Positions 8,164-24,754 of a DNA stretch of 64,000 nt are shown one piece after another. The DNA lies in contig JAGVEX010000019.1 of the NCBI GenBank assembly GCA_020057885.1, forward strand, positions 8,165 to 72,164. The letters run 5' to 3'. Origin of the DNA: a bacterium. GTDB taxonomy: Bacteria; Patescibacteriota; Patescibacteriia; Veblenbacterales; UBA10138. Positions within the stretch are counted from its first letter, which is position 1. Every line of letters begins with the position of its first letter. The notes beneath the pieces are model-generated. The model was not told the DNA's origin and did not search any database. It saw only the letters and a program-made list of their open reading frames with translations. Position numbers and translations under genes: made by a program.

Positions 8164-8213
8164 AACAATTTATTGGTTAAAGAATTAAAATTTAAAAAAA
8201 TTATAAATAACAA

Positions 8214-9449
8214 TTAAGGCATTAACGATTGCAGCCACTTTTTTACCTTACCTGTAACATCGTGCATGCCTGACAAATGCGGTAAATGCAAGCCGCCTGG
8301 ACTCGTGCCTTGTTTTAATCCCCAACGAGCCAAACCGAGCGCTGTGCCAAAAGATAAATCATTAATGCGCTCCAAGGGGCTAGTAACTTCCAAAGGATAC
8401 CCTAAACATGCCGGCAAACGGAATCTTCGCTTAGCTACTTCTACTGCACCGGAAAGTTTAGCACCACCACCTGTTAAAACCACTCCGGCTGGCAATTTGC
8501 CAGAACGATCAATTTTGTTAAGTTCGCGATCAACTAAATCAAAAATTTCTTCTAATCTAGCTTCAATAATTTCGGCTAAATGCTTGCGGTTTATTAAAAT
8601 ATTTTCATCGGTAAACTCGCTTAAATTAATTTCATCACGTTTATTAATTTCATCCGCCACAGCGTGGCCATAATCAATTTTTAATTTTTCCGCTAAATCA
8701 ATGGAAGTACGCAAGCCAATAGCAATGTCATTAGTAATATGTCCTGACCCAACCGGCACAACCGCAGCGTGCAACGGGTCACCCTCTTCACACACCAATA
8801 TACTTGTAGTAGCTCCGCCGATATTAATTAGAATTACGCCTAACTCTTTTTGACGTTTGGATAAAACAGCTTCGGCGTTTGCTAAAACAGTTAAAACTAA
8901 ACCATCTATATCAACACCAGTGCGATAAACGCATTTAGTAAGATTTTTAATTTGGGCAGTTTGTCCTTGAATAATTTGTGCTTCAACTTCCAAACGCACA
9001 CCTGTCATACCAACTGGATCTTTTACGCCAGGCTGACTATCCACTGTAAAGCTACGTGGCAATACGTGCAAAATTTCATAATTGGGTGGCGTGGCCACTG
9101 TTTGCGCCGCTTCTACTACACGAGATAAATCATCTTCACCAATTTCACCATTTGGTTTAGAAACAGCAATTACACCATGGCTTGATTGAGCTAAAATATG
9201 ACTACCGTTAATTCCCACCCAAGCGTGCTCGGGGGGCGTGCCTGTCATACGTTCAACTTTTTCTAAACAACCAGAAATAGCTGACACAGCATCTTCAATG
9301 CTTGTAATTACACCTTTGTGAATACCTTCAGAAGGAACTTCCGCTAGGCCAAGCACTTGTAAATGCTCATGTGCTGTACCTTGAGCCACTGCTATGCGGA
9401 TAGCAGTTGAACCTATATCTAATCCTGTGACTAAAGGCAATCGAGACAT
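8214..9449 (-). CDS. ftsA: Cell division protein FtsA (actin-like ATPase).
   Basis: GLDIGSTAIRIAV starts the protein and VLTGGGAKLSG appears later. The gene lies immediately upstream of ftsZ. Confidence 0.9.
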   Translation of the reverse strand: MSRLPLVTGLDIGSTAIRIAVAQGTAHEHLQVLGLAEVPSEGIHKGVITSIEDAVSAISGCLEKVERMTGTPPEHAWVGINGSHILAQSSHGVIAVSKPNGEIGEDDLSRVVEAAQTVATPPNYEILHVLPRSFTVDSQPGVKDPVGMTGVRLEVEAQIIQGQTAQIKNLTKCVYRTGVDIDGLVLTVLANAEAVLSKRQKELGVILINIGGATTSILVCEEGDPLHAAVVPVGSGHITNDIAIGLRTSIDLAEKLKIDYGHAVADEINKRDEINLSEFTDENILINRKHLAEIIEARLEEIFDLVDRELNKIDRSGKLPAGVVLTGGGAKLSGAVEVAKRRFRLPACLGYPLEVTSPLERINDLSFGTALGLARWGLKQGTSPGGLHLPHLSGMHDVTGKVKKWLQSLMP

Positions 9450-9531
9450 GATACAAAAAAAGTAAACGTACCTAAATTATAAAACTTATCACCCTAAATG
9501 CCAAGTGACTAAAGCTGAACAATTTAATTGT

Positions 9532-9882
9532 TCAGCTAATATGGGACCAAATAAGCAGCAAACCAATTACTAAAGCCGCTAAACAAAGTAACAAAACAGC
9601 AGCGGCCAATAAATCTTTTAGTAAAGCTATGTGAATAGAAAGCCGCGGTTCTATTAAATCGAGTAATCTTTCCAAAATTGTGTTAAATACTTCGGCGCTT
9701 AAAACAACAGCTATGGTCAAAATTAAAATCAGCCATTCCGCCTTACTAAAACTTAGATACCATCCGACAATAATCGCGCCCCCAGCTATAAATAGCTCCT
9801 GCTTAAAACTTGATTCTCGTTTAAACACATATCCTAAACCTCTCCCCGCATAAATGAACTTCTTTTTAAAACGAAACCACAT
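9532..9882 (-). CDS. dgkA: Diacylglycerol/undecaprenol kinase (DgkA family).
   Basis: The protein is 116 aa with three TM helices and a DgkA-like AEVFNTILERLLD motif. It follows ybeY, as in many bacteria. Confidence 0.65.
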   Translation of the reverse strand: MWFRFKKKFIYAGRGLGYVFKRESSFKQELFIAGGAIIVGWYLSFSKAEWLILILTIAVVLSAEVFNTILERLLDLIEPRLSIHIALLKDLLAAAVLLLCLAALVIGLLLIWSHIS

Positions 9883-9890
9883 AAAATAAA

Positions 9891-10328
9891 TTAGTTGTTT
9901 AATATTTTATCTTCTAAGGCACGCATTAAGCGATGATCTTTTTTTTTCATATGATCATAGCCAGCTAAATGCAAACAGCCGTGGATAAATAATCGTTCCA
10001 ACTCATCATTAAAACTAATACCCTCATGCTGTGCTTGTTGTTTAGCTTGTGTGGCACAAATAATCAACTCTCCCATTACTGGTTTTGCCTGATAAGTAAA
10101 CGATAATATGTCGGTTATTTTATTATGGCCGCGATAAACCCGATTAAGCGAACGAATTATATTAGGGCGGACAAACACAACGCCGATTTCGTTGAATTTA
10201 GTATGAATTAATTTATTAATTATTCTGAGTAAAACTTTAGCTCGCCGGTAAAAGCGAGCTGGTATTTTACTATTAGTTAAATTTTGAGTAATAATTTGAG
10301 CGGGCATGCAAAATTTATTCTCCTCCAC
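9891..10328 (-). CDS. ybeY: rRNA maturation endoribonuclease YbeY.
   Basis: The H3xH5xH metal motif HGCLHLAGYDH is present and the protein is 145 aa. Confidence 0.9.
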   Translation of the reverse strand: MEENKFCMPAQIITQNLTNSKIPARFYRRAKVLLRIINKLIHTKFNEIGVVFVRPNIIRSLNRVYRGHNKITDILSFTYQAKPVMGELIICATQAKQQAQHEGISFNDELERLFIHGCLHLAGYDHMKKKDHRLMRALEDKILNN

Positions 10329-10467
10329 TGTTAATGCCCCGCGCTTGCCGCGGGAATAAAAATTGTGAGAATCCTCCGAAGCTTCAGCGTAGGAGGGTAT
10401 TGAGCTTCGGACGAATGAACATTTTTTGAAATGCCGCCGATACCTCGTCGGCTTGCCACGAGGTAGT

Positions 10468-12219
10468 TCATTTACATATCACTTGTTCCTGTGTGCCGTC
10501 GGCATAAGTTATTAGACTGCCAGATCCAGACTTTACTATACTAGCCGCCAAATAACCTTTTAAATAATCTCCACTAAGTGTTGAATTGCTTTTTTGGCTC
10601 TCGCTAAAATAACCATCTAAATATTTTTTACTAATTTCACAAACATTAGTGGTGGTTTGGCCAGTTAAACTGTCCACTTTAGGACCAGAAATTTTACAAA
10701 TTCCATTGGCACTCGAAAGTATTTCAAACACTAATTGATTATTAGGCTGAGCGCTATCCATGGCGGCATTTATACGAGCAGGTGTACAAGATTCAAAATT
10801 ATTCACAAAGCAACTCCAAGCTTGTTGGGTAATCGTACTAGCACTATAAACATTACTGCCAGGTGTATTAACTGGGCCTGCCAAACCACAATCTGTTATT
10901 CCACCAGTCGTAACAGCCAACGGCAAACCCGCTTCGCTGGTTAAATTAAACGAATGTAGTATAGCTTGAAAAAGAGTGCCGAAAGAAGCTTCGGTTTTAG
11001 TGCCTATATTATAACTAAAAGTAATAATATAACGATCAGTTGCTAGATAAGCATTAAGGCCATTTAATGAAGTAGCCCAAGTAAAGCTACCGGAATTAAT
11101 AATGGGAACTTCTTCTGGTTTTAAACCTAAACCCTGCTGGGCATACCAAGTTGTAGATGTTAATTTTTCCGGATTGTCAACTATTAATACTTCCATAAAT
11201 TCGCTAGCTTCCTCACTGCTAAATACCACCTGAGCTGATTCCTGATCAGTTGCTCTGGCGGTCCAAGCTTTGGGATATAATAAACTATAACCAAAACGAG
11301 AACTGGTATAAGTGAAAAGATAAGCGCTGTTTTTAAGCTTAGCGCTGTTACCAACAGCTGGATCATAATCTGAACCAACTTCCAAGCCATCTGTGTAGCC
11401 ATCATTATCTGTATCGATCTTACTCGGGTCAGCGCCCAACAAAGGCTCAGTGGCATTGGTTAAGCCGTCGTTATCACTATCAACTGAAGGCGAAGGCGGT
11501 GTGGCTTGGCGCGGACCATTTGGCGGAGTAGGTGGAATAATAGAAGCGTCAGTATCTATCCCGGCTGGCGTTAATTTGTGATCACCAGCTGTTAAACTAT
11601 TACTTCCCTCTTCTAATCTAAAAGAAATGGTATAAGTGACGCCGTCAAAACTATCATACAAATAATCCACTCCGCCGGGGGCAATATTTTGTGGGACTTG
11701 TTCTAAATAAATTGTACCTTGCGCTTGTGGCCCCCAACCAGCTGAACTCAAAACTACTGAATTACCACTCCCCAACACTAAGGGTAACGGCACTATAGGA
11801 TATTTACCTTGGTTATCAGTGGCATAACGACCCAAAGCCTCTTGCAATTTAATTATATTTTGATAACGAATATTATCCCGCTCTGAAGCTGGTGGCACTT
11901 GCACAGTAACAGGCGGTGTAGTTGGCTCAGTTGTCGGCGCCACACTCGGTGTGGTGTTAGTAGTATTGATCGACGGTTGACTAGGCTGAATTTTAGAGAA
12001 AAATGTTAAATAAATACCCACTCCACCAATGGCTAACAATAATACCATTAATGATATTATTAACCAGCGACGTTTAGATTTTGGCTCAGAATAAGTAACT
12101 ACCGTCGCTTGACCAGACGGAGTAACAATTGGCATGGTATATATATCACCCCACACCTCTGACTTAGGCGAGGTTGACTGGGCAGCCACAGAATTCTTTT
12201 TTTTAGTTAAACCAAACAC
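10468..12219 (-). CDS. Single-pass membrane-anchored extracellular protein with a Pro/Thr-rich linker, thrombospondin-type-3-like Ca-binding repeats and a C-terminal Cys-containing domain of unknown function.
   Basis: The TM segment is RRWLIISLMVLLLAIGGVGIYLTFF. The Pro/Thr-rich linker includes TTPSVAPTTEPTTPPVTV. The repeat region reads DSDNDGLTNATEPLLGADPSKIDTDNDGYTDGLEVGSDYDP. Confidence 0.6.
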   Translation of the reverse strand: MFGLTKKKNSVAAQSTSPKSEVWGDIYTMPIVTPSGQATVVTYSEPKSKRRWLIISLMVLLLAIGGVGIYLTFFSKIQPSQPSINTTNTTPSVAPTTEPTTPPVTVQVPPASERDNIRYQNIIKLQEALGRYATDNQGKYPIVPLPLVLGSGNSVVLSSAGWGPQAQGTIYLEQVPQNIAPGGVDYLYDSFDGVTYTISFRLEEGSNSLTAGDHKLTPAGIDTDASIIPPTPPNGPRQATPPSPSVDSDNDGLTNATEPLLGADPSKIDTDNDGYTDGLEVGSDYDPAVGNSAKLKNSAYLFTYTSSRFGYSLLYPKAWTARATDQESAQVVFSSEEASEFMEVLIVDNPEKLTSTTWYAQQGLGLKPEEVPIINSGSFTWATSLNGLNAYLATDRYIITFSYNIGTKTEASFGTLFQAILHSFNLTSEAGLPLAVTTGGITDCGLAGPVNTPGSNVYSASTITQQAWSCFVNNFESCTPARINAAMDSAQPNNQLVFEILSSANGICKISGPKVDSLTGQTTTNVCEISKKYLDGYFSESQKSNSTLSGDYLKGYLAASIVKSGSGSLITYADGTQEQVICK

Positions 12220-12231
12220 AAATAATAAATT

Positions 12232-12855
12232 TTAAGGTTTAGTAGGAATTTCATAATTAGGCAGACGGCCAGGGCCGTTGGGATTAAATCCGTTCTTAAT
12301 TTCCACGCTATCTATATAGCCATCGCCGTCAGAATCAGCTTGGCTTGGATTGGTATGATAAACTTTTACTTCTTCACCATCCATTAAACCGTCGGTGTCT
12401 GTATCCGCCTTTAAAACATTGGTACCCAACTGCTGCTCCTCGGCGTCAGTTAAGCCATCACCATCAGTATCTATCTCAACCACTTGAGTTGGCTGTTCTG
12501 TAGTTGTGTTTAAATTAGTAACTGATGGCTGATTGGTTGAAGGCAGAGAGTTGTTAGAAACAATTGATTTATTTTTTGCTTGCCCTTGCGACCACCACCA
12601 GTAACCTCCTACTGCAATCCCTGCCACTAATATTACTATAAATACCACTGTGAGCCAATGCTTTTTGGGTTTATCAACAAAAACTAAACTATCTATTTTA
12701 GGAACAGAGGTGGGTGATGGTATTGACGGTAAGGAAAATAATCGAGATGGCAAGGCTTGATTGTTCGTTGGTACGACAGGTGCGGGAATTTCCGCATCTG
12801 AAAAAATATCTTCTACCGAACTTGATTTTGACTTATTAATCATATCATTAAACAT
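12232..12855 (-). CDS. Small single-pass membrane protein with thrombospondin-type-3-like Ca-binding repeats.
   Basis: The TM segment is HWLTVVFIVILVAGIAVGGYWWW. The repeat region reads DTDGDGLTDAEEQQLG...DTDTDGLMDGEE...DSDGDGYIDSVEIKNGFNP. Confidence 0.6.
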   Translation of the reverse strand: MFNDMINKSKSSSVEDIFSDAEIPAPVVPTNNQALPSRLFSLPSIPSPTSVPKIDSLVFVDKPKKHWLTVVFIVILVAGIAVGGYWWWSQGQAKNKSIVSNNSLPSTNQPSVTNLNTTTEQPTQVVEIDTDGDGLTDAEEQQLGTNVLKADTDTDGLMDGEEVKVYHTNPSQADSDGDGYIDSVEIKNGFNPNGPGRLPNYEIPTKP

Positions 12856-12869
12856 AAAAATTACTCTGA

Positions 12870-15800
12870 TTACTTGGTTATTGTCAAAGTGCCAGCCTCA
12901 CTTGTCTTAGTCATATAACCAACACCTGGATCAATTTGGGCTACACCAGCAACCCAAGCATTATTATAATAATAAACATCACCGATTGTACCTGGGGAAT
13001 ATGTTATGGCACTAAGAGGTACTGAAGTAGACAATGAACCAAATCCATTCCATCCAAGAGGCAATGGTACAGAAAAATTTGAAATTGCAGAAAAACCAGT
13101 AATAGTTACATCTTCAGCGTAACCAAATTTGATAAAATAGGCCAACCCGACCTGAAGATTAGTCACACCAACATACGCACCATTTAAGTACTGATATGCT
13201 TCGCTAGTCGCGGTTGGAAACAGGACATTGGTAGCCGAGTTTAGCACATTAAATGGCAAAGAAATAAAATTCCAACTTGCTACCATATTATAGGTATGGG
13301 TCAAAACCGGAATAATGTTAAATGTCGCTGTCACGGTAACAGCTGAATTTACAGTACAAGTACCTGTGCCAGTACAACCTCCGCCGCTCCAACCGCCAAA
13401 GGTAGAACCTGCGGCAGGTGTAGCAGTTAAAGTAACAGACGAAGTAAATGATCCTGTACAAGTGGCACCACAATTAATTCCCGCTGGGCTACTAGTAACA
13501 GTGCCCGAGCCGGTTCCAGCCTTAGCCACTGTTACGGCAAATGGCGCAGTGGTGAAAGAGGCGGCCACTGATTTATTGCCATCCATTGTAATTACACAAT
13601 TGCCAGTGCCATTAGTACAAGCCCCGCTCCAGCCCCCAAAAGTAGCGCCCGCATCCGGAGTTGGGACAAGCGCAACTTGTGTGCCAGCAGGATAAGACCA
13701 ACTACACCCAACACCACTCGGAAGACAATTAATATTTGGACCTGTTACAACACCAGAGCCAGTAGTAGTTACGTTCAAAGTATAGTTTGTAGTACTAAAA
13801 GTAACTGTGACAGTTTTAGCCGCATCCATTGTTACCTGACAAGTAGATGGTGGTGGCGTTGGCAATGCTGGTTTACAAACTGCTGGAACATCAGTGCCGC
13901 TCCAACTTACAGTAGAGCCGAGAGAAGGGTTAGCAGTTAAGGTAACGGTTGTAATTGGACTGCCTGGATATACATATGTACAAGCATCACTACTACAGTT
14001 AGCACTAGGAGTGCTTAAATCAACAGTACCACTGCCACCGCCGCCACTAGCAATATTTAAAGTAAGTATATGAGAAGTGAAAGTGGCTGTGACATTTTTA
14101 GCTGTATTCATTGTTACTTGACAAGTGGCTGGTGGTGTTGGCAGTGCTGGCGTACAAGTTGCAGGAACATCACCACTCCACCCCTCAAAACTACCTAAAG
14201 TTGGTACGGCTGTTAATGTTACTACGTCAGTAGCGTTATAAGGCGCACTGCAAGTTGAACCGCAATCAATTTTAGTATCTGAACTGCTAACTGTGCCAGC
14301 ACCAGTACTGAGTCCTTTTGTTACAGTAAGTATGTTGGCGTTAAAAGTAGCTTCGGCAATTATATCGCCGGTAGTAGGTATTGTAACCGTACATTGGTTA
14401 CCAGTAAGAGAAGGACAAGCTGTCCAAGCTCCAATGCAATTATAAGGCCAAGCGCTAACTTGCGTACAAATTCTCCAGCCACCAAAAGTGCCTACCGTAA
14501 CTTGGGGAATTAAAGAAACAATACTCCCTTGTTGATAAAGTCCATCACAATCCGCACCACAGTTAATACCTGGCGGGTTACTGGTTATAAGGCCCGTACC
14601 ATTACCAGCTTTACGAGCAAATAAAAATTGAGAGGGGGCCAATTTAAACACAGCTGTTACTGTTTTATTGATATTAATGGTTAATGTACATTGACCACTG
14701 AGGGTGCAATCGCCTTCCCATTTATCAAAAATATACGCGCCAACTAGACTAGCCGGAACTGGCGGATTTAGATAATCAGCTGATGGCATTAAACTAACAA
14801 TTGAACCAGCCACAAAACGAGCGGAGCAACTACTACTACCATTACCACAATCAATACCTACTGGATTAGAAGTCACGCGATGATAAATAGTATCTATAGT
14901 ACTAGTATTTGATATCCATATTTTCTTATTAACTGTCAATGTATACGCCAAAGCAAAATTAGCTATAACATTTGTATTGGTATCCATAGTTACGGTGCAG
15001 GTAAGCGCCACGCCACAACTAGCCAAACTCCAGCTAGTAAATACTGAACTAGCATCTGCTGATGCAGTTAAAGTAACAGCATTGCTAGCGCTAGAACTTT
15101 TGCCATACGCCCCAGTACAATCAGATCCACAATCAATACCTATGGGGCTGCTTGTTACGCGACCTGTACCATTGCCCCCTTTGATCACATTGAGTGTTAC
15201 TTTTTCGGCAAATTGAGCTGTAATTATTCTATCTTGATCCATGGTCATATCACAAGTAAGGGAAGTACTGCCATAACATGGCGCACCTAGCGCGCTTAAC
15301 CAACTCATAAATATTGAATTACTATCGGGCGTAGCAATTAATTTTACAATAGTTGTTACTGGCGGCGTACCAGTACCACTCTGTTGATATGCCTGAATAC
15401 AGTGACTACCTCCCGAGCCGCACTTTATTGGATCAGATGAAGGAATATCGCTAATCACCGTACCAGTGCCTGTGCTATAACCAATAGGGGTGCTGGTAGA
15501 AACCGACAAAGTGGCACGTGGTTCAAAAGTAGCTGTTACTGTAGTTGCTCCAACCACAATAATCGTACAACTGCTATTACCGCCACATCTAACCGTACCG
15601 TTTACATCCCAACCCACAAAGAAATCTGTTAATGCTACGGCGGCATTTAACACCACGCTTGTTCCTCCTGTATAACTATCAACGCAATCAGACCCGCAAT
15701 TAATTTGTGGTGTAGGCTCGTTACTTTTTACTATGTTAGCGATATTATTCGCCCTAGAACCCTCTTTTGCCACTGTTAAATCGTAACCTCTGATACTAAA

Positions 15801-18800
15801 AGTAGCTGTGACATTTTTAGCCGTGTTCATTGTTACCTGACATGTAGTTGGTGGTGTTGTTGGCAGTGCTGGCGTACAAATTGCAGGAACATCACCAGTC
15901 CAACCAGTAAAAGTAGAATCAGAATTTGGCACTGCCTGCAAAGTTACTAAACTATCACCAATATAATCAAAACTACAAATTAAGCCACAATTAATTCCGG
16001 CTGGCGTACTTGTAACCGTGCCCGAACCGGTGCCAGTGCGCTGTGTTTGAAGACTGTAAGAAATGCGCGTAAAATTAGCAGTCACCGAAACATTACCAGT
16101 AAGCTTAATAGTACAAGTAGCACTAGTACCAGCGGCAGCACAAGCTCCGCCCCAACCTGCAAACACATAACCAGCTAGGGGTGTGGCGTTTAAAATTGCG
16201 CTCTCACCATCAGCGTAATCGGCTGTACATCCGCTAGCTGGCAAACCAGAACCGCAATTTACTTTTCCATCAACGCTCGTTACTGTACCCGATGAATTAA
16301 CAGTTAAAGATAAAGTTTGCTTAGGCACAAAAGTAGCTGTTACCGATAGCGCGGCATCTCTAATCATAATTGTACAAGTGCCCGTACCACTACAGGCTCC
16401 ACTCCAGCCAGCAAATATAGTAGAACCATCCATGGGGTTTACTGCGGTTAGAGCAATGGTGGTGCCGCTAGGAATATTGGCTGTAGAACAGGTTGTGGTA
16501 GTAAGAGTGGTACAAGTAGGCACACTTGCCACATTACTCGTCACACTGCCCTGACCTGATACGGTAATATTCAGGCCATACATATTTTCAGCAAAATTGG
16601 CCGAAGTTGAGAACGTACTCGTACCAGTTATAATATCTACTGTACAAATTGGGCCAACGGTACTGCTACAAACTCCACCCCAACCAATAAATCGGGAACC
16701 GGTTCTGGGCAAGGCTGTTAGGGCAACTTTTGTATTCACTGCATAAGCAGCGCTACAAGCTAAACCGCAACTTATTTTTGGCGTGGGTTCGTTACTAACC
16801 ACTGAGCCATTACCAGAAGAAGTAACGTTTAGTGTAGGTGATTCATAATTAATTAAATTTTTAATACTATCACACTCATCGGTGGTTGGGATTGTTATAG
16901 CGCTTCCTGTACCTTTCCACCACGTTACATTTTTAAATTCTGCATTAAAGGAAAGCTCAGCCCGACTGTTTGCCAAAACACGATATTGATATACATGAGA
17001 ACCTGCCGGACACGGTTCTACAAATTTTTTAGCATCAGCGCTCCAGCATGTTTTGGAATCATAACTCGTTGGACAATCTTTAAATTTATTAATCGGATCA
17101 ACTGGTAAACTGCGTGACATAGCGGCACCCAAGGTCTGTTGCCAAGAATACCAGGTACTAGCGCTGTGCCCTACTTCGTAAGAACCAGCTGACAAAGGAG
17201 GTACGCTATTAGAATGTGTGGCGGCATAACTATCCAAAGCTTTAGGAATAGTCCGCGCAACATCCGTTAGACGCTTTATATCATTTTTTATTTGTGCTTT
17301 GGCATCGGGCAAGGCAGATAAATTGGTATTAAAAACCCAATTCTTAATTAACTCTTGATAAATAGTTTGAGTAGAGGTAACTGCGCCTCGGTTATATCCC
17401 ATAACATACATATCGGTGTACATGGCATCGGGCGGAGTCACTGGATCTTCTGCTAAATTAGGAGCTGATATATAAACTGTAGTACCATCCTGAACAGCTG
17501 AATAACCATCAACTGTAACATCGTTTAATCCCCCTTTAACAATATCCGGACGAGACATATACCATGTACGGGGTAACATAGTATCAATAGATGTTTCATA
17601 AACACGCAAGCCGATGGCATCGGGACTGGCGGGATTTTTAAAGAAATATTCATAATTGCCTACCGGCTCGTTTGGTATGGGATTAGCAACGGAAACAGTT
17701 AAGGCTGGCAATATATCGCTGGCGCCAATTTTTTTTACTGTTAAGTTGTCAAAATAAATTGGAACACTGGTAAGAGTACCTGTAAGAGAAGTGTCCGCAT
17801 TTATACCTAAACATAAAGTTTGGATGGTTTGCGCGCCAGTGTTAAATACTAATTGCATAGCTTGCCAACCCTCTGCCCGAGGCAGTTGAGTAGACTGTGT
17901 CCAGCCGCAACTAGTGCCAGGCGCAATGGCCATAACGCCACTGACTGATTGTGTTATATTGGCACCTACATAAGCATAAACAAGAGCTGAATAACTAGTA
18001 TCTTTTTCTAAATTGATAAAAGTATGCCCTATGGAATAATTAGTTGGGGCTAAACCAATAGTGCGTGTGCTTATACTGCTAACATCCCCTGGCGCAAAAG
18101 TTTGGGGCGCGGAACTTATACTCCAAACAGCAGTATTGCCTACAGTCCATTCGCTTATATTATTAAAACTTTCTGTTTCGTTGGTTCCAATAAGTACGGG
18201 GGTTAAAGTACCAGTAATTGTTTTGGCGCGGCAATAGCGCAGACGGAAATTATGCTGGCTATCTTCAAACTCCCAAGGCACCTCACAAATATAAATATCC
18301 AAGGGGGCGGAGGCCTGCTTAACGCCAGCAATTCCGCCATTAACAGTAACCTTGAGTAAAGCTTGACCGTTGCGTGTACCAGATGTTACAAATGTTGGAT
18401 TAGCAGTGACCGAGGACAAACTAATTAAATTATTAGGATCGTCCTTTTGCCAAGCATAAGAAGCTGTTAGAAGTTGACCGTCTTTTGCTAAAGCATTGGC
18501 TCTAAATTCTTTGCGTTCGTTCGATTTAGTGAAACTCCAACTATTTGGACTAATTGTTACTTTATCAATTAAACATACTTCCGCACTTGTAGAAAAAATA
18601 ACTTCACAGCCTGGCACGCCGCCGCAATCCAAAACCTCTCCTAACACTCCTCTAATACTGGCGTCAACTGTTAAATGATATTGATTATTTGGTAGTAAGG
18701 GCGTTGTTGGTATAAAAGACACTCGACTCTTTTCAATTTTCAATTGACCAACCACAGGAATAAAGGGGTTTGATGTAGTATTATCTAATCTAAAACTAGC

Positions 18801-21800
18801 ATCGGTAACGGTGCTTGAATTAATGTTTGTATTAAAATTAGCTACCACCACCGCGTTAAGGCAAATATTTGTGTCGTTATTTTGAGGAACAAACGAAATA
18901 ACCCTAAGACTAACTGGTATGTTGGGCACAGCGCCAGTATTAACAGTAAATTTTTTAGGGTTGCTCAATAATATACGTTGTTCAATAACATCTTCCCAAC
19001 CACCAATACAATTTTCACCAATTTGGATTTTAGGCAAAGGACAATTTCTACCCACTACTACGTTAGCTACTTTTTGTACTGTTACGTCACCTGTCTTTGT
19101 GTCTATAGGTGGCACCAAAACTAAGTTTGAATCAGTCCAAGTGGTGACTTCAGGCAGAACACGTAGGAACGGCTTAGCTAAACTCGGCCAATTAATACCT
19201 TCTTGTGTTGAAGCGAGAAAATTTCCAAACCTATCACCAAGTAATTGCACGCTGAGTGGTAAGGTGACCACTGTTTCAGGATTAAGCTGGCACAAACCTG
19301 GCGCTAAAGGAATATTTTCATTAGCAGTAAAAGTTTTACTTTCTATTTCGTCATTAGCAGTAATTAAACCGGAGTGGGTTGTTACCCGCACACGCGCTGT
19401 TACAGCTATCCCGGGAGTTTTTATAATAATTTCTGAATCAGCCCATGGTTTAGTGCAAGCCGCTGGTAAAGAACCTGCTGGTATACCTCCAAATGACACT
19501 GAACCTTGCTCGTCACCAAAATTACCGCCCCTTACTGTAATCCAGGTGCCAATTGGACCGGTATTGGGAGTAAGGCTGGTTATAAACGGCCCACCTGTAA
19601 AAGTAACACCATTAGACGCGCGTAAATCTCCACCCAGCGCGCCATAGTCAACTGACACCCTTATATCACCAGTACGAACCTTGAGCGGAGTTAAAATAGT
19701 TATTTGTTTGTTGTTCCACCCAGTAACTTGGGTTGAGTTTGATAATTTATAACGATTAGAAACGGCTGGTAATAATGTCTCTTCAGTAATTGGTGCAACG
19801 GAACAATCTGAAATCGCTGGCACAAAATCAGCTGGATTGCAAGCCATGCTCACAAAACTACCAGTTATAATTGGCTTACGATTATCTGTAAAATTACGGC
19901 CTGAAATAGTTACGCGCGTACCAGTGGCGCCGCTCACAGGTGTAATAGAACAAATGCCTGGCCTAATAACAGTACTAACGGTAAAAACTGGATTCCTAAA
20001 AGCGGGTATAGACAATGGGTTACCCCATGATGTACCAGCACTCGTAATAACTTCAATATTATGAGTTGAATTAACAGGAGCTAATGCTGGAACAGCTACT
20101 ACTATTTCATTGTCCCTCCAATAACCGCAATCAACCAGAGAAGCTGAGTGGCTGCCAAATTTAACAATACCACCGCTTCCAAAGTGTTCACCTTTAATTG
20201 TAACAACTGTAGTCACTTCATTTTGCGCAACACCATCAATATGATCTATGTCGGTAATTCTTGGTCTCTCCGTGGGGCCAGTTGGTGAACCAGAGAGTAC
20301 ATCAAATTTTAACAAAGCTGACGGAACTCCGTTTTTAGTAACAAAAATGCGTTGATCTTTTTCCACTGCTGTAGTAACAGGGGTAATTGCTTTAACTGCA
20401 GTATTGGACCAACTAGGATAATTAGTGGCCTGTGTGGTAATACTGCCTTGATAATTAACAACGTCGCCTGCCCCCTGTGTGGCACCAAAACCATTACCGC
20501 TTAAGGTTACTGTGGCAGATGTGGTGCCGCGTTCTGTTTCATAAGAATAATTTGGCTCCACTTTACATAGACCAGGATGAACCACGGCATTGACTGTATA
20601 ATCTGTCACGGTTGTTTTTTGTACGCCATCTGTGCGTTCAATTGTAATAGGACCAGTTCTGGCATCATTGGCACTAGATACATCTGGCACTTCGCTGATA
20701 ATTTGTGTGTTAGTCCAAGTGTTACCACAAATAGCACTCGGAGGCCACAAACCATCAACTGTGCCGCCGCCAACTTTATCATAAATTACACGACCCTTGT
20801 TGCTACCAAAATAACAACCATTAATTCCTACCCACGTGCCAATAGCACCACTGGTAGGTGAAAAGTCTTGTATGACTGGGGTACAACTGCCAGCTTTACA
20901 AGTTGAAACTCCAGGCCCGCAAGCAGTACAATCGATACTACTAGTACAGGCCACATCATTCATTATTAAATCCGCTGTATCGCTTTTACCAGCCGCGCTG
21001 GCAGTAATTTCAATTGGCGGATTGGTGTCTGGAAAATTTGTTGAGGTAGGCGGCGTAACCGAAGCTGTAACTTTCCAAGGATCACTACCAGGGGTAAGTG
21101 TGGCTATGGTTTTAGAAGACGTCCAAGGATTCCAAGTATAACTTGCCGGATTTAGTAAATTACAATTTATAGCTTGTGTTGAAGCGCTATAAGCCTGAGT
21201 TTCATTTTGTGAACGAATGTATCCAGTAGAAGTACCATTGGAAGCCGTAACTGTAATGCTGGCTATACTACAAATATCACTACCGGTTTGAAATTGCCAA
21301 GTGTAGTTATAATCCATTGGCGTGCCATCAAGCGCGCGCATTGTTCTGCTGATAGTTACTTGATACCAACTATTAGCCTGCAGATTACTTGTGGGCACTA
21401 ATTGAAACCCTGTCGGTTCAGTATTATTAGGCAATAAAATAATACTACTAAAAGTAATTGGTGTTGGATTGGTGCAAGAAGTACTAGCGCTAGTGGCATC
21501 ACACAGCCAAGCTTGGATGTTGCCAGTAGTGCTACCCGCTAAACCAACTACTGTAAAATCAGCTGGGTTCATTGCTGTGCTAAAACGAGCGGCAACTAAA
21601 GCATTGCGACACACTCCGGTAGTGCCCGCGGCTGGGCTGGGGCTTTGAAAATTTGCACTGCACTGTGTATCTTCTATCACATAAGGTGCTGGTGAACATG
21701 GCACAGTAAAAGTTATGCTGTTGCTAGGCGGTAAATTTGGCACTATTACCGCCACACTATGCTGACCATTACCTAAATCAGTTCTCACTGGTACAGGAGT

Positions 21801-23822
21801 AATATTTTGGTCATTCCAAGTTCCGATCCAAGTTCCAGCCAGTGCATCCACTCCGGCAATTTGCACATTGCTAACGCCACGCGAAGTGCCGAACCTCACA
21901 CCACCCAAAGTAAGTGTTGCACCTCCTCCGGTTACCTGACTTAAAGAGCTACAAGTTGGCGCAACCGAACACAACCCCGGACCAATTGGTGAATTATCCA
22001 CTGTAAAGTTATAAGTATTGCTTTTTTTGCCGCCTACGCCATCGCTATTGGTAACTTGCACTTCATACGCACCAACTGGCAAACCAGCCGGCACTTTAAT
22101 AATAATTCGATTATCCTGCCAAGAACCTAAACCGCAAGCCAGTTCGGCATCAGTAAAAGTACGAGCCGCTCTGGTGCCAATAGCAACCGGATTCATAAAA
22201 GTAACCTTAGCCGGCGCCGCACTAGAATTGCCAAAAAAATTACCGCCCACTGTTACAAATTGTCCAGGCGGACCGCTTTGTGGCGACAATGACCTTACAT
22301 AAGGACTGCTCACATCAATAAACTGTGGCGTGCTATAAACTGTTCCCACCTGTGCCACTATTTTTGTATTAGGCACAGCAGGCCAATAAGACAAGGGGAC
22401 TCCAATTGGTATTCTCAAACGAATTGAAGTTGTGGTCCAAGAAATTATATTATCAGTAGCTGGATAAAAACTATTGCTGTCTGCCGGCAAACCATTAAAC
22501 AGTACATTGTTGGTCGCTAATCCTAAATTTTTACCAGTAAGATTTATCACATCACTATAGTAACCACTGGTTCTATCAATATTCGTAAGCTCTGGCGTGC
22601 AGTATTCAGTAGTACCTGTTTTAAAATCCCAAGTATAATCATTTTGCATGGTGTTTCCACAACTATCACTAATGCCACCCACTCCACCCTTTAAGGTAAC
22701 AGTGTAAGTAACATTGGGAGAAAGCGGTGTTAACGGATAAACTGTAAATGATTTAAAATTACTCCCTGGTACTACTTGACCGAGTGGCACATTATTGCCA
22801 CTGGCATCTGTTAAAGTAATATTACCTATCTTAGTTAACGAGGTAACACTCATTGTTTCAGAAAATACGGCCTGAATTGGTGTACGTAAACAAACCTCTG
22901 TAATGCCCAGCGCAATACCAGCATCTCTTTCTGGATTAGTTGGCGGCACAACTGTCGGTGCTACATTGTCTGTTTCTGTACCAGTTTTAAAATCCCAATC
23001 TTTAGCTGTATTTAAATTGCGTGGATTACCTTGCGAATCCATAGTCGCGCTCTGCACGCCAGTAGAAATGCTAACATGATAATCAGTATCTTTTTCAAAA
23101 TCAGGGTGGCTATAACTAAAAGCATTGGTCTTATTTTCCTCGGGCGAACCAACCGCCGGACTAAAATTGCCTGATCCTGTAACATCTACCCAAACATTAC
23201 TGGCATTACGATAAGTAACTTCTACATTACTTGGCACACTGGACGTTAATACTAAATCATTAAAAATAGCTTGTACTTGTTCGCATAATTTAACATCAAC
23301 TGCGCTATCGGCTGGTGAAACAGTGTCAACACTAAACCCGCGCTCCCCGCCGCCTGGCAAACAACCGGCTCCCACACAGCCTGTTAAACCACCACCATTA
23401 TTAACGCCCGTAGCACTTTCTAACTGTTTAAAAATAAAAGCCGCGATGCCAAAAGCGGCAAAAACAATTACCAAGCCAATAACTGCGCTTGATAATATTT
23501 TTTTTGCTTGAGCAATTTTTTCCTCGTTGCCTTGCGAGGTCATCCAAATAAACCCACCGTACAAAATCAAGGCAACCGCAATAACACCTAAAATACTTAA
23601 GAAAATATTAATTACCCTACCAACGGTTTGGATAATATTTTGATTACCCAAATTAACATTGCCGTTAAGCTCATCAAAACCAAAATTTTGCGCCGCCACT
23701 GGCAAAACACCTGTCCCAATACCAACACCAATCAGTAAAAAAACCAATATCCAAAACTGGTAACGTTTTAACCAATTAAATATGTTGGTAACCATAAATT
23801 TGGTTGAAAAATATTTATGCAA
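12870..23822 (-). CDS. Giant (3650 aa) cell-surface protein. It has a VirB2/TrbC-pilin-like two-helix N-terminal anchor, IPT/TIG- and Ig-like domains, and a long array of InlB-B-repeat-like (Listeria-Bacteroides repeat) modules.
   Basis: It is one uninterrupted ORF. The N-terminus ...ILGVIAVALILYGGFIWMTSQGNEEKIAQAKKILSSAVIGLVIVFAAFGIAAFIF resembles T4SS pilin hairpins. Roughly 80-aa modules recur many times with the pattern ..GSGTVTSSPAGINCG..C......VTLTA.P..GS.F.GW.G.C.G.G.C.V.....VTATF. IPT-like segments (PVIQDFSPTSGAIGTWVGINGCYFG) are also present. Confidence 0.8.
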   Translation of the reverse strand: MHKYFSTKFMVTNIFNWLKRYQFWILVFLLIGVGIGTGVLPVAAQNFGFDELNGNVNLGNQNIIQTVGRVINIFLSILGVIAVALILYGGFIWMTSQGNEEKIAQAKKILSSAVIGLVIVFAAFGIAAFIFKQLESATGVNNGGGLTGCVGAGCLPGGGERGFSVDTVSPADSAVDVKLCEQVQAIFNDLVLTSSVPSNVEVTYRNASNVWVDVTGSGNFSPAVGSPEENKTNAFSYSHPDFEKDTDYHVSISTGVQSATMDSQGNPRNLNTAKDWDFKTGTETDNVAPTVVPPTNPERDAGIALGITEVCLRTPIQAVFSETMSVTSLTKIGNITLTDASGNNVPLGQVVPGSNFKSFTVYPLTPLSPNVTYTVTLKGGVGGISDSCGNTMQNDYTWDFKTGTTEYCTPELTNIDRTSGYYSDVINLTGKNLGLATNNVLFNGLPADSNSFYPATDNIISWTTTSIRLRIPIGVPLSYWPAVPNTKIVAQVGTVYSTPQFIDVSSPYVRSLSPQSGPPGQFVTVGGNFFGNSSAAPAKVTFMNPVAIGTRAARTFTDAELACGLGSWQDNRIIIKVPAGLPVGAYEVQVTNSDGVGGKKSNTYNFTVDNSPIGPGLCSVAPTCSSLSQVTGGGATLTLGGVRFGTSRGVSNVQIAGVDALAGTWIGTWNDQNITPVPVRTDLGNGQHSVAVIVPNLPPSNSITFTVPCSPAPYVIEDTQCSANFQSPSPAAGTTGVCRNALVAARFSTAMNPADFTVVGLAGSTTGNIQAWLCDATSASTSCTNPTPITFSSIILLPNNTEPTGFQLVPTSNLQANSWYQVTISRTMRALDGTPMDYNYTWQFQTGSDICSIASITVTASNGTSTGYIRSQNETQAYSASTQAINCNLLNPASYTWNPWTSSKTIATLTPGSDPWKVTASVTPPTSTNFPDTNPPIEITASAAGKSDTADLIMNDVACTSSIDCTACGPGVSTCKAGSCTPVIQDFSPTSGAIGTWVGINGCYFGSNKGRVIYDKVGGGTVDGLWPPSAICGNTWTNTQIISEVPDVSSANDARTGPITIERTDGVQKTTVTDYTVNAVVHPGLCKVEPNYSYETERGTTSATVTLSGNGFGATQGAGDVVNYQGSITTQATNYPSWSNTAVKAITPVTTAVEKDQRIFVTKNGVPSALLKFDVLSGSPTGPTERPRITDIDHIDGVAQNEVTTVVTIKGEHFGSGGIVKFGSHSASLVDCGYWRDNEIVVAVPALAPVNSTHNIEVITSAGTSWGNPLSIPAFRNPVFTVSTVIRPGICSITPVSGATGTRVTISGRNFTDNRKPIITGSFVSMACNPADFVPAISDCSVAPITEETLLPAVSNRYKLSNSTQVTGWNNKQITILTPLKVRTGDIRVSVDYGALGGDLRASNGVTFTGGPFITSLTPNTGPIGTWITVRGGNFGDEQGSVSFGGIPAGSLPAACTKPWADSEIIIKTPGIAVTARVRVTTHSGLITANDEIESKTFTANENIPLAPGLCQLNPETVVTLPLSVQLLGDRFGNFLASTQEGINWPSLAKPFLRVLPEVTTWTDSNLVLVPPIDTKTGDVTVQKVANVVVGRNCPLPKIQIGENCIGGWEDVIEQRILLSNPKKFTVNTGAVPNIPVSLRVISFVPQNNDTNICLNAVVVANFNTNINSSTVTDASFRLDNTTSNPFIPVVGQLKIEKSRVSFIPTTPLLPNNQYHLTVDASIRGVLGEVLDCGGVPGCEVIFSTSAEVCLIDKVTISPNSWSFTKSNERKEFRANALAKDGQLLTASYAWQKDDPNNLISLSSVTANPTFVTSGTRNGQALLKVTVNGGIAGVKQASAPLDIYICEVPWEFEDSQHNFRLRYCRAKTITGTLTPVLIGTNETESFNNISEWTVGNTAVWSISSAPQTFAPGDVSSISTRTIGLAPTNYSIGHTFINLEKDTSYSALVYAYVGANITQSVSGVMAIAPGTSCGWTQSTQLPRAEGWQAMQLVFNTGAQTIQTLCLGINADTSLTGTLTSVPIYFDNLTVKKIGASDILPALTVSVANPIPNEPVGNYEYFFKNPASPDAIGLRVYETSIDTMLPRTWYMSRPDIVKGGLNDVTVDGYSAVQDGTTVYISAPNLAEDPVTPPDAMYTDMYVMGYNRGAVTSTQTIYQELIKNWVFNTNLSALPDAKAQIKNDIKRLTDVARTIPKALDSYAATHSNSVPPLSAGSYEVGHSASTWYSWQQTLGAAMSRSLPVDPINKFKDCPTSYDSKTCWSADAKKFVEPCPAGSHVYQYRVLANSRAELSFNAEFKNVTWWKGTGSAITIPTTDECDSIKNLINYESPTLNVTSSGNGSVVSNEPTPKISCGLACSAAYAVNTKVALTALPRTGSRFIGWGGVCSSTVGPICTVDIITGTSTFSTSANFAENMYGLNITVSGQGSVTSNVASVPTCTTLTTTTCSTANIPSGTTIALTAVNPMDGSTIFAGWSGACSGTGTCTIMIRDAALSVTATFVPKQTLSLTVNSSGTVTSVDGKVNCGSGLPASGCTADYADGESAILNATPLAGYVFAGWGGACAAAGTSATCTIKLTGNVSVTANFTRISYSLQTQRTGTGSGTVTSTPAGINCGLICSFDYIGDSLVTLQAVPNSDSTFTGWTGDVPAICTPALPTTPPTTCQVTMNTAKNVTATFSIRGYDLTVAKEGSRANNIANIVKSNEPTPQINCGSDCVDSYTGGTSVVLNAAVALTDFFVGWDVNGTVRCGGNSSCTIIVVGATTVTATFEPRATLSVSTSTPIGYSTGTGTVISDIPSSDPIKCGSGGSHCIQAYQQSGTGTPPVTTIVKLIATPDSNSIFMSWLSALGAPCYGSTSLTCDMTMDQDRIITAQFAEKVTLNVIKGGNGTGRVTSSPIGIDCGSDCTGAYGKSSSASNAVTLTASADASSVFTSWSLASCGVALTCTVTMDTNTNVIANFALAYTLTVNKKIWISNTSTIDTIYHRVTSNPVGIDCGNGSSSCSARFVAGSIVSLMPSADYLNPPVPASLVGAYIFDKWEGDCTLSGQCTLTININKTVTAVFKLAPSQFLFARKAGNGTGLITSNPPGINCGADCDGLYQQGSIVSLIPQVTVGTFGGWRICTQVSAWPYNCIGAWTACPSLTGNQCTVTIPTTGDIIAEATFNANILTVTKGLSTGAGTVSSSDTKIDCGSTCSAPYNATDVVTLTAVPTLGSFEGWSGDVPATCTPALPTPPATCQVTMNTAKNVTATFTSHILTLNIASGGGGSGTVDLSTPSANCSSDACTYVYPGSPITTVTLTANPSLGSTVSWSGTDVPAVCKPALPTPPPSTCQVTMDAAKTVTVTFSTTNYTLNVTTTGSGVVTGPNINCLPSGVGCSWSYPAGTQVALVPTPDAGATFGGWSGACTNGTGNCVITMDGNKSVAASFTTAPFAVTVAKAGTGSGTVTSSPAGINCGATCTGSFTSSVTLTATPAAGSTFGGWSGGGCTGTGTCTVNSAVTVTATFNIIPVLTHTYNMVASWNFISLPFNVLNSATNVLFPTATSEAYQYLNGAYVGVTNLQVGLAYFIKFGYAEDVTITGFSAISNFSVPLPLGWNGFGSLSTSVPLSAITYSPGTIGDVYYYNNAWVAGVAQIDPGVGYMTKTSEAGTLTITK
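13795..13900. repeat. Intragenic near-identical DNA repeat, copy A, encoding ...CTPALPTPP..CQVTM..AK.VT.TF.
   Basis: About 100 bp closely matches the copies at 14085-14180 and 15800-15900 (GTGACA.TTTTAGC....TTCATTGTTACCTGACA.GTAG.TGGTGG.G.TGGCA.TGCTGG). Confidence 0.7.
14085..14180. repeat. Intragenic near-identical DNA repeat, copy B.
   Basis: See copy A. GTGACATTTTTAGCTGTATTCATTGTTACTTGACAAGTGGCTGGTGGTGTTGGCAGTGCTGGCGTACAAGTTGCAGGAACATCAC. Confidence 0.7.
15800..15900. repeat. Intragenic near-identical DNA repeat, copy C.
   Basis: GTGACATTTTTAGCCGTGTTCATTGTTACCTGACATGTAGTTGGTGGTGTTGTTGGCAGTGCTGGCGTACAAATTGCAGGAACATCACC is almost identical to copy B. Confidence 0.7.
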
Positions 23823-23863
23823 AATGATTTTTATTTTTTTAGAATTCGTTTATTTTGATACTT

Positions 23864-24316
23864 CTATTTTAATACTTCACGCACCAGTGAGCTAACTGTT
23901 TGCCCATCGGCCGCACCGTTATAATGCGCCATCACCGCTTTGGTAAGCTGGCCCATAGCATGGACCCCGCTTAAATTTAATTCTTGTTTTAAACGGACAA
24001 CAGTATTTTTAATATCATCTGAGTTAGGAGCCGCTGGTAAATAATTAAAAATTATTTCAGCTTCATCTTTTTCTTTAGCCGCTAAATCTAAACGCCCACC
24101 CTGCTCATAAAGCTTGGCTGCTTCTTGGCGCTTTTTTAATTCGCGGCGGAAAATCGCCAACGCGCCATCTTCGTCCAGACCAGTCTCTTTTCCTACTCGT
24201 GCAATAACTTCGTTATGCAGAGCAGATTTAAGTATACGCAAGGTAGCGAGCTCTGGTAATTTGCCTCGCAATGCTGAATTAATATCTGCTTCCAAACGAC
24301 TTACTATCTCAATCAT
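23864..24316 (-). CDS. yqeY: GatB/YqeY domain protein.
   Basis: The sequence is 150 aa and has the conserved YqeY family pattern. The gene is downstream of rpsU, the classic rpsU-yqeY arrangement. Confidence 0.8.
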   Translation of the reverse strand: MIEIVSRLEADINSALRGKLPELATLRILKSALHNEVIARVGKETGLDEDGALAIFRRELKKRQEAAKLYEQGGRLDLAAKEKDEAEIIFNYLPAAPNSDDIKNTVVRLKQELNLSGVHAMGQLTKAVMAHYNGAADGQTVSSLVREVLK

Positions 24317-24340
24317 AAATATATTAATTTAAGAAAGATT

Positions 24341-24619
24341 TTATTTGCGCAGGGCGCGTTTAATCATAGCAATAGTGCGTGGATTACGGCTACGTAAATC
24401 CTCTTCTTCTAATTGACCTGTTTTTCTTAAATACTCTTTACGACTGCGTATAGATAAACGACGCACAGCGTCTTCACGTTGTTCACGCTTGGTTTTGGGT
24501 GTCTCAAAAAAGCGCCTCTTTTTGGTTTGTAGAATCAAACCAGACTGTTGAACGCGCTTTGAAAAACGGCGAAGCATACCTTCTACCGATTCTCCTTCTT
24601 TACGTTTTACTTCTATCAC
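24341..24619 (-). CDS. rpsU: 30S ribosomal protein S21, with an extended basic C-terminus.
   Basis: MIEVKRKEGESVEGMLRRFSKRVQQSGL matches the S21 N-terminus. The protein is 92 aa, against a usual length of about 60-70. Confidence 0.85.
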   Translation of the reverse strand: MIEVKRKEGESVEGMLRRFSKRVQQSGLILQTKKRRFFETPKTKREQREDAVRRLSIRSRKEYLRKTGQLEEEDLRSRNPRTIAMIKRALRK

Positions 24620-24754
24620 GGTAAATACACCTCCTTACTAAAAAGATGATTAAATATTTTACTATTCTATTATACACTATTTTTTACAAATAGTCAAATC
24701 TAAAAGGTAATTATAAACAAATAGCCACAAAACATAGTTAAATTGGCACCAACT

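Follow-up and report, generated by a model that had tools for sequence, protein, structure and literature searches.

A giant protein with an N-terminal VirB2-type pilin hairpin and two TSP3 membrane proteins at a conserved housekeeping locus of Patescibacteria

The 64-kb window analyzed here (the whole stretch of DNA, taken from contig JAGVEX010000019.1 of assembly GCA_020057885.1) contains a gene for a giant protein of 3650 residues in which a signal peptide and a two-helix hairpin of the VirB2-like pilin family PF18895 are followed by a very large putative extracellular part. Two genes for membrane proteins of 207 and 583 aa, both with thrombospondin type 3 (TSP3) repeats, follow it directly, and the three genes recur together inside the same string of housekeeping genes in many Candidate Phyla Radiation (CPR, Patescibacteria) lineages. 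We consider it fairly probable that they specify a conserved cell-envelope module of the CPR, consisting of a giant fibre on a VirB2-type hairpin and two TSP3 membrane partners, with attachment as its likeliest function. Whereas small VirB2-like pilins were known before, the new element is a modular VirB2-type pilin or anchor that bears a giant putative adhesin. An earlier annotation made from the letters of this DNA (hereafter the original prediction) had described three open reading frames (ORFs) of one orientation, and these were found on the minus strand with the gaps of 14 and 12 bp that it gave (Table 1). Residues of the giant protein are numbered from the TTG codon at 23822.

A pilin-family hairpin at the N-terminus of the giant protein

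The resemblance of the N-terminus to the pilins of type IV secretion systems (T4SSs), which the original prediction had proposed, was supported by two kinds of comparison. The Pfam profile PF18895 (T4SS_pilin) matched residues 64–130 with 37.8 bits against a gathering score of 26.6, covering profile positions 6–71 of 71, and the N-terminal 156 residues aligned end to end, at 30–50% identity, with 31 stand-alone pilins. The latter are 101–181 aa long (most of them 115–135 aa) and carry PF18895, and one is labelled 'pilin' by one source; two stand-alone homologues, P0174 and P0183, have PF04956 besides PF18895. Pfam did not find PF04956 in the giant protein, so the expected two-helix pilin profile was there, but in the form of PF18895 and not of PF04956 itself. 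The motifs LILYGGFIWMTSQGNEEKIAQAKKIL...VIGLVIVFAAFGIAAFIF lie at residues 84–131. Hydropathy placed the two hairpin helices at residues 63–96 and 106–136, and the AlphaFold2 (AF2) model contained the expected helices, at 54–86 and 91–129, together with a helix at query residues 5–27 in the signal-peptide region. Every invariant position of the family alignment (A2) is kept in the giant hairpin, loop included (L69, G81, W84, M85, G89 and I106–V109). Searches outside the family gave fainter signals. NCBIfam returned a weak, sub-threshold match of the N-terminus to the 'Mbov_0395 pilin-like conjugal transfer protein' of a Mycoplasma integrative conjugative element, and hhalign against Agrobacterium tumefaciens VirB2, with an approximate VirB2 sequence, gave a marginal in-register match of 43% probability. 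The PDB sequence search with the pilin profile yielded no match, and the fold search with the hairpin model was non-specific.

The original prediction had also read the hydrophobic N-terminus as a hairpin and not a classical signal peptide. The exclusion of a signal peptide does not hold, since a classical one is present upstream of the hairpin, as in VirB2/TrbC: a hydrophobic stretch was seen by hydropathy at residues 21–45, ending in ...LPVAA/QNF with the predicted cleavage site at the slash, and it aligns with the signal peptides of the stand-alone pilins. The hairpin therefore does not replace the signal peptide. Translation of the giant gene most likely begins at the ATG at 23795, because the homologue P0024 (3621 aa; N-terminus 88% identical) aligns 1–156 to 1–156 when the query is begun at the methionine of this codon. 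The GTG start of the 583-aa gene agrees with the 'MFGLTKKK' start of its homologues.

The giant protein is not an isolated case. An exhaustive HMMER search with its N-terminal 156 residues against 1.84 billion cluster representatives retrieved 31,681 proteins at E ≤ 1e-3 and 7,095 at E ≤ 1e-10. Because 54 of the best 150 matches are at least 1,000 aa long (37 at least 2,000 aa and 24 at least 3,000 aa, the longest being 5,289 aa), the PF18895 family includes large fusions. Nearly all of the large proteins have a single matched stretch, and in these the hairpin stands at the N-terminus. The size of the giant protein, 3,641 aa from the ATG, is unlike that of a small stand-alone PF18895 pilin (~100–150 aa), and homologues of 3,076–3,621 aa share its N- or C-terminus. 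The matches also comprise proteins with 2–16 tandem hairpins; five of them (P0035, P0027, P0141, P0165 and P0166) have 8–16 tandem PF18895 hairpins, e.g., 16 stretches in 1775 aa, and look like fused pilin arrays. A word-indexed protein search with pilin and core queries returned short proteins only and missed the giants found by the exhaustive search.

Hairpins of large proteins (n = 103) and free pilins (n = 161) have the same consensus, and their column entropies correlate with r = 0.90. The mean column entropy was 1.46 bits in the former versus 1.80 bits in the latter, i.e., the hairpins of large proteins are somewhat more conserved. They are also more homogeneous, with 50% mutual identity versus 42% to array pilins, and in 81 of 94 cases the nearest neighbour of such a hairpin was another hairpin of a large protein; coarse clustering showed no separation.

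Small VirB2-like pilins and pilin arrays of Patescibacteria have already been described (PMC10633639, PMC12102498, PMC12857230, PMC11665869). In the one species tested, epibiotic growth required the T4SS and its VirB2-like pilins, but the systems of Patescibacteria are without relaxases and no adhesin had been linked to them (PMC10633639, PMC12102498, PMC11665869); adhesins such as PrgB were not detected (PMC12102498). Large C-terminal extensions on such pilins are not mentioned in the searchable literature on Patescibacteria pilins. The claim that this is not a described system thus stands for the giant fusions, which that literature does not discuss, but not for the small pilins, and the fusion architecture is common in sequence databases. 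Pfam detected no VirB4, VirB6 or VirD4 families among the 53 ORFs of the window that were scanned, and no T4SS ATPases were present among the Walker-A candidates scanned within 10 kb on either side of the 80 most similar pilin loci. These candidates were FtsH, ComM-type Mg-chelatase and SMC, and PilT-like, RecA and RecQ proteins were encoded by neighbouring ORFs included in the scan; ORFs of ~455 aa with two Walker-A motifs were taken to be Der, by motif layout alone. Beside the small-pilin arrays most like this hairpin lie genes for SMC, a solute-binding protein, PPDK and a glycosyltransferase, and the loci syntenic with the window are flanked by the housekeeping genes rpsU-yqeY and ybeY-dgkA-ftsA. 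As no T4SS machinery lies nearby, the link of the giant protein to T4SSs is one of homology only. In five metagenome loci (L094, L121, L129, L150 and L152), an ORF of ~457 aa directly followed by an ORF with a PF18895 domain was noted beside small-pilin arrays. The ~457-aa ORF is an SBP_bac_1 solute-binding protein in L094 and L129, and in L121, L150 and L152 it is alike in size and position only; no T4SS genes were seen in the ORFs scanned near these five loci.

Gene order and transcription context

The three genes were expected to stay together in relatives, and they do so even in distant lineages. The genome scan seeded with the 583-aa family covered one genome per species and returned 80 loci; the synteny counts pool these loci with metagenome loci. 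The order rpsU-yqeY, pilin-fronted large protein(s), TSP3 protein, 583-aa family and ybeY-dgkA-ftsA was encountered in 62 loci, which belong to Kerfeld-, Falkow-, Uhr-, Buchanan-, Komeili- and Magasanikbacteria. The 583-aa family stands immediately upstream of ybeY in 62 loci, is preceded by small TSP3 gene(s) in 60, and an ORF of at least 500 aa precedes the TSP3 gene(s) in 52, with median gaps of 45 nt (large ORF to TSP3), 14 nt (TSP3 to the 583-aa family) and 3 nt (583-aa family to ybeY). All four close homologues that were examined individually have the giant, the ~200-aa TSP3 protein, the 583-aa family and ybeY-dgkA-ftsA-ftsZ. Look-ups of the exact 207-aa and 583-aa sequences found neither on record. 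The best match of the 583-aa protein in the genome scan is labelled Candidatus Kerfeldbacteria, and the wider relatives are labelled Komeili-, Falkow-, Buchanan-, Uhr- and Magasanikbacteria or 'Parcubacteria group', all belonging to the CPR/Patescibacteria.

At 25 loci the adjacent large ORF was complete at its 5' end. Of these loci, 17 encode a pilin-fronted protein of 500 aa or more, and 11 of the 25 have two such proteins in tandem (~550–1,050 aa and then ~1,600–2,300 aa). A metagenome scan from the other side, with the pilin hairpin as the seed, gave 80 loci, which fall into two groups. At least 35 have S21-YqeY and then pilin-fronted large ORF(s) (S21-YqeY stands immediately before the latter in at least 34), with TSP3, the 583-aa family and ybeY coming next wherever the locus extends far enough; about 29 are arrays of 3–14 small pilins, as in the literature.

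The co-oriented and tight spacing of the three genes agrees with the single three-gene operon of the original prediction, but the likely transcription unit is larger and runs from rpsU to ftsZ. The best promoter-like site in the window (TTGACT-17-TATAAT, 11/12 matches) lies upstream of rpsU, just past a strong terminator, and the promoter/terminator scan found no terminator-like sites inside the rpsU...ftsZ string. The three-gene set is probably co-transcribed with rpsU-yqeY-...-ybeY-dgkA-ftsA-ftsZ. We take rpsU-yqeY...ybeY-dgkA to be an ancient gene cluster, familiar from Firmicutes, inside which the surface module sits here; the apparent cluster is joined directly to ftsA-ftsZ (window 6982–24697, minus strand).

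Between the 583-aa family and ybeY, 62 related loci leave a median gap of 3 nt, and a 77%-identical relative (L002) leaves 8 nt. In the window the two genes are separated by a spacer of 139 nt (10329–10467) with three GC-rich hairpins (−46.9 kcal/mol), which is unique in the window. Because the same junction is short in relatives, the spacer resembles an insertion specific to this lineage and may be an attenuator or an element similar to repetitive extragenic palindromes (REP-like).

The remainder of the window, with a GC content of about 40%, is rich in the housekeeping genes of small genomes. Pfam identified RNR, NrdR, FtsZ, FtsA, DgkA, YbeY, S21, YqeY and HisRS, as well as signal peptidase, Der, Pth, Mfd, DprA, TopA, RelA, ParAB and others, and the Rfam search of the window revealed tRNAs only. 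On the other side of rpsU, beyond a terminator with a 13-bp stem (24786–24758), a gene on the minus strand (24798–30320) encodes a second giant surface protein of 1840 aa, which has an N-terminal signal or anchor and no pilin hairpin. Its domains are Laminin_G_3, fn3, Big_7 (five copies), a GHL15-like stretch, Golvesin_C, Glucodextran_B, Big_13 and, near the C-terminus, two TSP3 repeats.

Table 1. Positions of the three genes, their protein regions and the flanking genes in the 64-kb window.
Feature	Position	Strand	Remarks
Upstream context	23864–24697	-	promoter-like site 24697–24669, rpsU 24341–24619, yqeY 23864–24316 (Pfam; promoter/terminator scan)
Giant gene, ORF	12870–23822	-	3650 aa from TTG 23822; stop codon 12870–12872
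Giant gene from ATG	12870–23795	-	3,641 aa; probable start, by homologue P0024
Sec-type signal peptide	23688–23795	-	ORF residues 10–45, ...GVLPVAA/QNFG; predicted cleavage at the slash
VirB2-like pilin hairpin (PF18895)	23415–23633	-	residues 64–136: transmembrane helix 1, loop TSQGNEEKIAQAKK, transmembrane helix 2
Immunoglobulin-like stalk	18633–23330	-	residues about 165–1730; Big_5 x4, IPT/TIG x4 or more, unassigned beta-rich stretches (Pfam, whole protein and fragments)
Conserved core	16833–17675	-	residues about 2050–2330; no Pfam model
13 InlB B-repeat units (Flg_new_2)	13287–16772	-	residues 2351–3512
C-terminal domain, ~135 aa	12873–13286	-	ends ...EAGTLTITK; same C-terminus in P0047, P0104, P0044
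TSP3 membrane protein gene	12232–12855	-	207 aa
207-aa protein, layout	12232–12855	-	predicted cytoplasmic MF.D...EDIFS, transmembrane helix 64–89, Ser/Thr/Asn/Pro-rich linker, 3 TSP3 repeats (129–185)
Larger TSP3 membrane protein gene	10468–12219	-	583 aa; GTG start
583-aa protein, N-terminal part		-	predicted 49-aa cytoplasmic tail with WGDIYTMP, transmembrane helix 50–77, disordered P/T linker
583-aa protein, ectodomain		-	pseudopilin-like head ~110–225, 2 TSP3 repeats 247–280, PsbP/Mog1-like ~297–450, Cys-rich alpha/beta 455–583
Downstream context	6982–10328	-	ybeY, dgkA, ftsA, ftsZ (Pfam)

Ectodomain of the giant protein and the TSP3 membrane proteins

The presence of IPT/TIG-like and immunoglobulin-like (Ig-like) domains, which had been foreseen, was borne out by Pfam (four TIG and four Big_5 domains). 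In the comparison with large same-locus ORFs of distant lineages, the hairpin (residues ~50–200) and a core of ~280 aa (~2050–2330) were by far the most widely conserved segments. Parts of the stalk are common to some lineages, and the B-repeat array and the C-terminal domain occur only in the closest relatives. Since the hairpin and the core are kept across lineages and the distal part varies, the pattern agrees with a base that is constant and a binding tip that varies.

The core had no Pfam or PDB sequence match. Its first half is homologous to the 583-aa family at residues 340–430, within the PsbP-like domain (hhalign probability 96%, E 4e-9), and its second half contains the pseudopilin-head-like motif KRLTDVARTIPKALDSY...LPVDPINKF...TCW...YQY. 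The motif of the core family (alignment A3), KLxRDxxRLxDLxxIxxxLxxYxxxNGxYP...LPxDPxN...TCW...YxY, is like that of pseudopilin heads. The 583-aa protein and the giant core are thus alike in one domain type by sequence and in a second one by motif and fold. At several loci the core begins a separate ORF right after the pilin-fronted ORF. It was also observed in stand-alone secreted proteins of 260–590 aa in unrelated gene contexts (L165, L166), and one stand-alone core protein is annotated as 'MopE-related / cysteine-rich repeat protein'.

The original prediction counted dozens of repeats of the InlB B-repeat type. The family was right (Flg_new_2, PF18998, E 5e-65 in 9 stretches by Pfam; TIGR02543, 25 bits versus 20.95, by NCBIfam), but the number is 13, as found with a self-built hidden Markov model (HMM; E 1e-17 to 1e-29 for each unit). 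The DNA copies of the repeats have diverged and are 63–86% identical, by which a recent repeat expansion was ruled out. Pfam found no match for the C-terminal domain. There is no C-terminal LPXTG or transmembrane (TM) sorting signal, LPxTG-like strings being internal only (2371, 2527), and no sortase was seen among the window ORFs by Pfam; a sortase-anchored adhesin was ruled out by the missing C-terminal LPXTG signal.

Hydropathy and above-threshold TSP3_bac matches bear out the original description of the accessory proteins: each has a single TM helix, then a linker that is polar or rich in Pro/Thr, and TSP3 repeats. A predicted cytoplasmic tail precedes the helix in both. TSP3_bac (PF18884) scored 62.3 bits in the 207-aa protein, which has three DxDxDG motifs, and 26 bits against a cut-off of 25 in the 583-aa protein, which has two, with Asp columns invariant across 18 homologues. 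Calcium binding is predicted for the repeats of both proteins. The 207-aa family (58 syntenic homologues) conserves MFD[DE] at residue 1 and [EV]EDIF[AS], and the 583-aa family has the tail motif WGxIYTMP with invariant M29 and P30. The tail motifs lie at window positions 12799–12816 (residues 14–19 of the 207-aa protein) and ~12130–12153 (residues 23–30 of the 583-aa protein). EDIF[AS] and WGxIYTMP or DIHTMP both match [DE]-I-[FYH]-[AST], which suggests a common cytoplasmic partner for the two proteins.

The Cys-rich C-terminal domain that had been noticed in the 583-aa protein is present, but it is lineage-specific and, among the homologues aligned, occurs in the three closest alone. This protein has no prepilin leader or N-methylation motif and no N_methyl or T2SSG Pfam match even at E ≤ 10. 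Its being a pilin was rejected because a prepilin leader is absent and a disordered linker separates the head from the TM helix; the head fold alone matches, and going by the model it is a borrowed head domain and not a pilin.

Proposed role, alternative explanations and known systems

In the mechanism that we propose, the giant protein would leave the cytoplasm through Sec and lose its signal peptide. The VirB2-type hairpin would tether it in the cytoplasmic membrane with both ends outside and the Lys-rich loop inside, and a fibre of about 3,500 residues would project from the cell, composed of the Ig-like stalk, the core (a PsbP-like half and a pseudopilin-like head) and the distal part, where the lineage-specific 13 InlB B-repeats and C-terminal domain would probably be the end that binds a ligand. 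Both TSP3 proteins would act as membrane-proximal partners of the giant. The set would be made constitutively from the housekeeping string, because it is probably co-transcribed with the housekeeping genes. Attachment to a partner cell or surface is the most likely function and a plausible one for a CPR organism, and in line with the original prediction we infer a 'Ca-dependent attachment apparatus'.

Several observations weigh against this proposal. The conservation of the hairpin exceeds what a plain anchor needs; such strong conservation, loop included, argues that the hairpin does more than anchor and hints at an extra role, e.g., assembly with pilins or with a machine. Eight of the 25 neighbouring large ORFs that are 5'-complete had no pilin match with the self-built HMM. 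The hairpin-rich spacer of 139 nt before ybeY could terminate or regulate transcription. Finally, since the conserved order also includes unrelated housekeeping genes, synteny alone does not prove a joint function of the three proteins.

The conservation of the hairpin is the point at which a true modular pilin deserves attention as a possible, if rather unlikely, explanation. A T4SS whose VirB4-type machine has its genes elsewhere would then pull the hairpin out of the membrane and add it to a VirB2-type filament that consists for the most part of small pilins. In such a filament the giant might serve as a tip, priming or sparse subunit that displays the adhesin, by analogy with modular type IV pilins. 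F pili display peptides that are fused to the C-terminus of F-pilin, which counts for this explanation, as do the full PF18895 membership with every invariant residue, loop included, and a constraint on the hairpin equal to or above that on free pilins. In Southlakia epibionticum, an array of small VirB2-like pilins in the T4SS cluster is essential (PMC10633639), and 1,135 of 1,948 assemblies have one or more such pilins close to virB4 (PMC12102498). Moreover, Patescibacteria are monoderm (PMC12857230), so a bulky C-terminal extension would presumably meet no outer-membrane channel to block it. Set against these points are the T4SS families missing from the 64-kb window and from the Walker-A candidates near the most similar pilin loci, the housekeeping locus devoid of a T4SS cluster, the uninformative fold search and the size of the extension, 3,500 aa on a pilus subunit being without known precedent. 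Because the hairpins of large proteins form a more homogeneous subgroup, they may also have a specialised, non-polymerising role.

The housekeeping neighbourhood itself suggests another reading, in which the locus is frozen, the TSP3 proteins are envelope or division factors working with ybeY-dgkA-ftsA-ftsZ, and the giant is an independent adhesin at a permissive site. The 583-aa family is indeed tightest to ybeY (median gap of 3 nt), ftsA and ftsZ come next in nearly all loci, the conserved cytoplasmic motifs suggest a cytoplasmic partner, and the core domain also occurs in unrelated contexts. We nevertheless regard this reading as improbable: the giant core and the 583-aa family have a homologous PsbP-like domain and a pseudopilin-like head, pilin-fronted large ORFs stay beside the TSP3 genes over class-level divergence (25–30% identity) while the ectodomains are otherwise replaced, and the 583-aa model shows no divisome-like fold. 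A repeat-rich gene from a metagenome also raises the suspicion of mis-assembled repeats or of a decaying pseudogene read as one ORF, yet the frame of 10.95 kb has no stop codon, homologues of 3,076–3,689 aa have matching N- and C-termini, the repeats differ at the DNA level to the extent given above and syntenic giants occur in many assemblies; the chance of an artefact is negligible and the giant protein is real.

A more sweeping version of our proposal would make PF18895 more than a shaft subunit of conjugation-type pili, namely a general surface-display and assembly module of the CPR, and would have the rpsU-ftsZ locus encode the core host-attachment organelle for an entire class of Patescibacteria, with the giant, as a true modular VirB2-type pilin of a monoderm cell, priming or capping a filament and the TSP3 proteins, with pseudopilin-like and PsbP-like domains akin to those of the giant core, forming its calcium-dependent base. 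As a whole, this version appears doubtful to us, a little more so than the modular pilin. The proposal of a conserved envelope module has consequences short of that. A large share of the proteins nearest this hairpin have huge extracellular domains, and if the hairpin is an anchor only, PF18895 counts are no evidence for T4SS pili. The gene set, which keeps its place among housekeeping genes in many CPR lineages, offers a testable link between a pilin module and host attachment. The analysis also points to candidate partner proteins and to a conserved domain that has no name yet, and it supplies a genomic marker that comparative and metatranscriptomic studies can use.

Among known systems, the PF18895 pilins of Patescibacteria are the closest, belonging to the same family and having the signal peptide, the two-helix hairpin and the signature GGFxWMT..GNEEK..AKK..IGLVI; the giant hairpin is 35–50% identical to free pilins of 115–135 aa. 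The described ones are small, arranged in arrays and often near virB4, whereas the giant hairpin carries about 3,500 putatively extracellular residues and its gene belongs to a housekeeping string that has no T4SS genes around it. The layout of a signal peptide and a hydrophobic hairpin is also that of the TrbC/VirB2 conjugative pilins (PF04956; T pilus, F-type pili); unlike these, the giant has neither a PF04956 match nor linked VirB machinery, and its host is monoderm. In modular type IV pilins, e.g., PilB and PilC of Streptococcus sanguinis, a filament-subunit module carries an extra adhesive domain. The concept is similar, but the filament superfamilies are unrelated (type IV pili versus VirB2-type), the extra domains of those pilins measure tens to hundreds of residues versus thousands in the giant, and for the giant a place in a filament is hypothetical. 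The head of the 583-aa protein was compared with the heads of EpsG, PulG and the Shewanella pilin 4d40 (type II secretion system pseudopilins and type IV pilins), and the PsbP/Mog1 fold was considered as well; in contrast to pseudopilins and type IV pilins, the protein lacks a prepilin leader and a T2SSG match, and its head sits on a disordered P/T linker. Long arrays of Ig-like domains or B-repeats link the giant to Listeria InlB and to giant Ig-repeat adhesins such as the 7,651-aa adhesin of Mobiluncus mulieris (PMC10619420) and SasG (PMC4458895), but Ig-repeat adhesins are held by C-terminal LPXTG/sortase or other wall anchors, whereas the giant protein of this locus has a pilin-type hairpin at its N-terminus.

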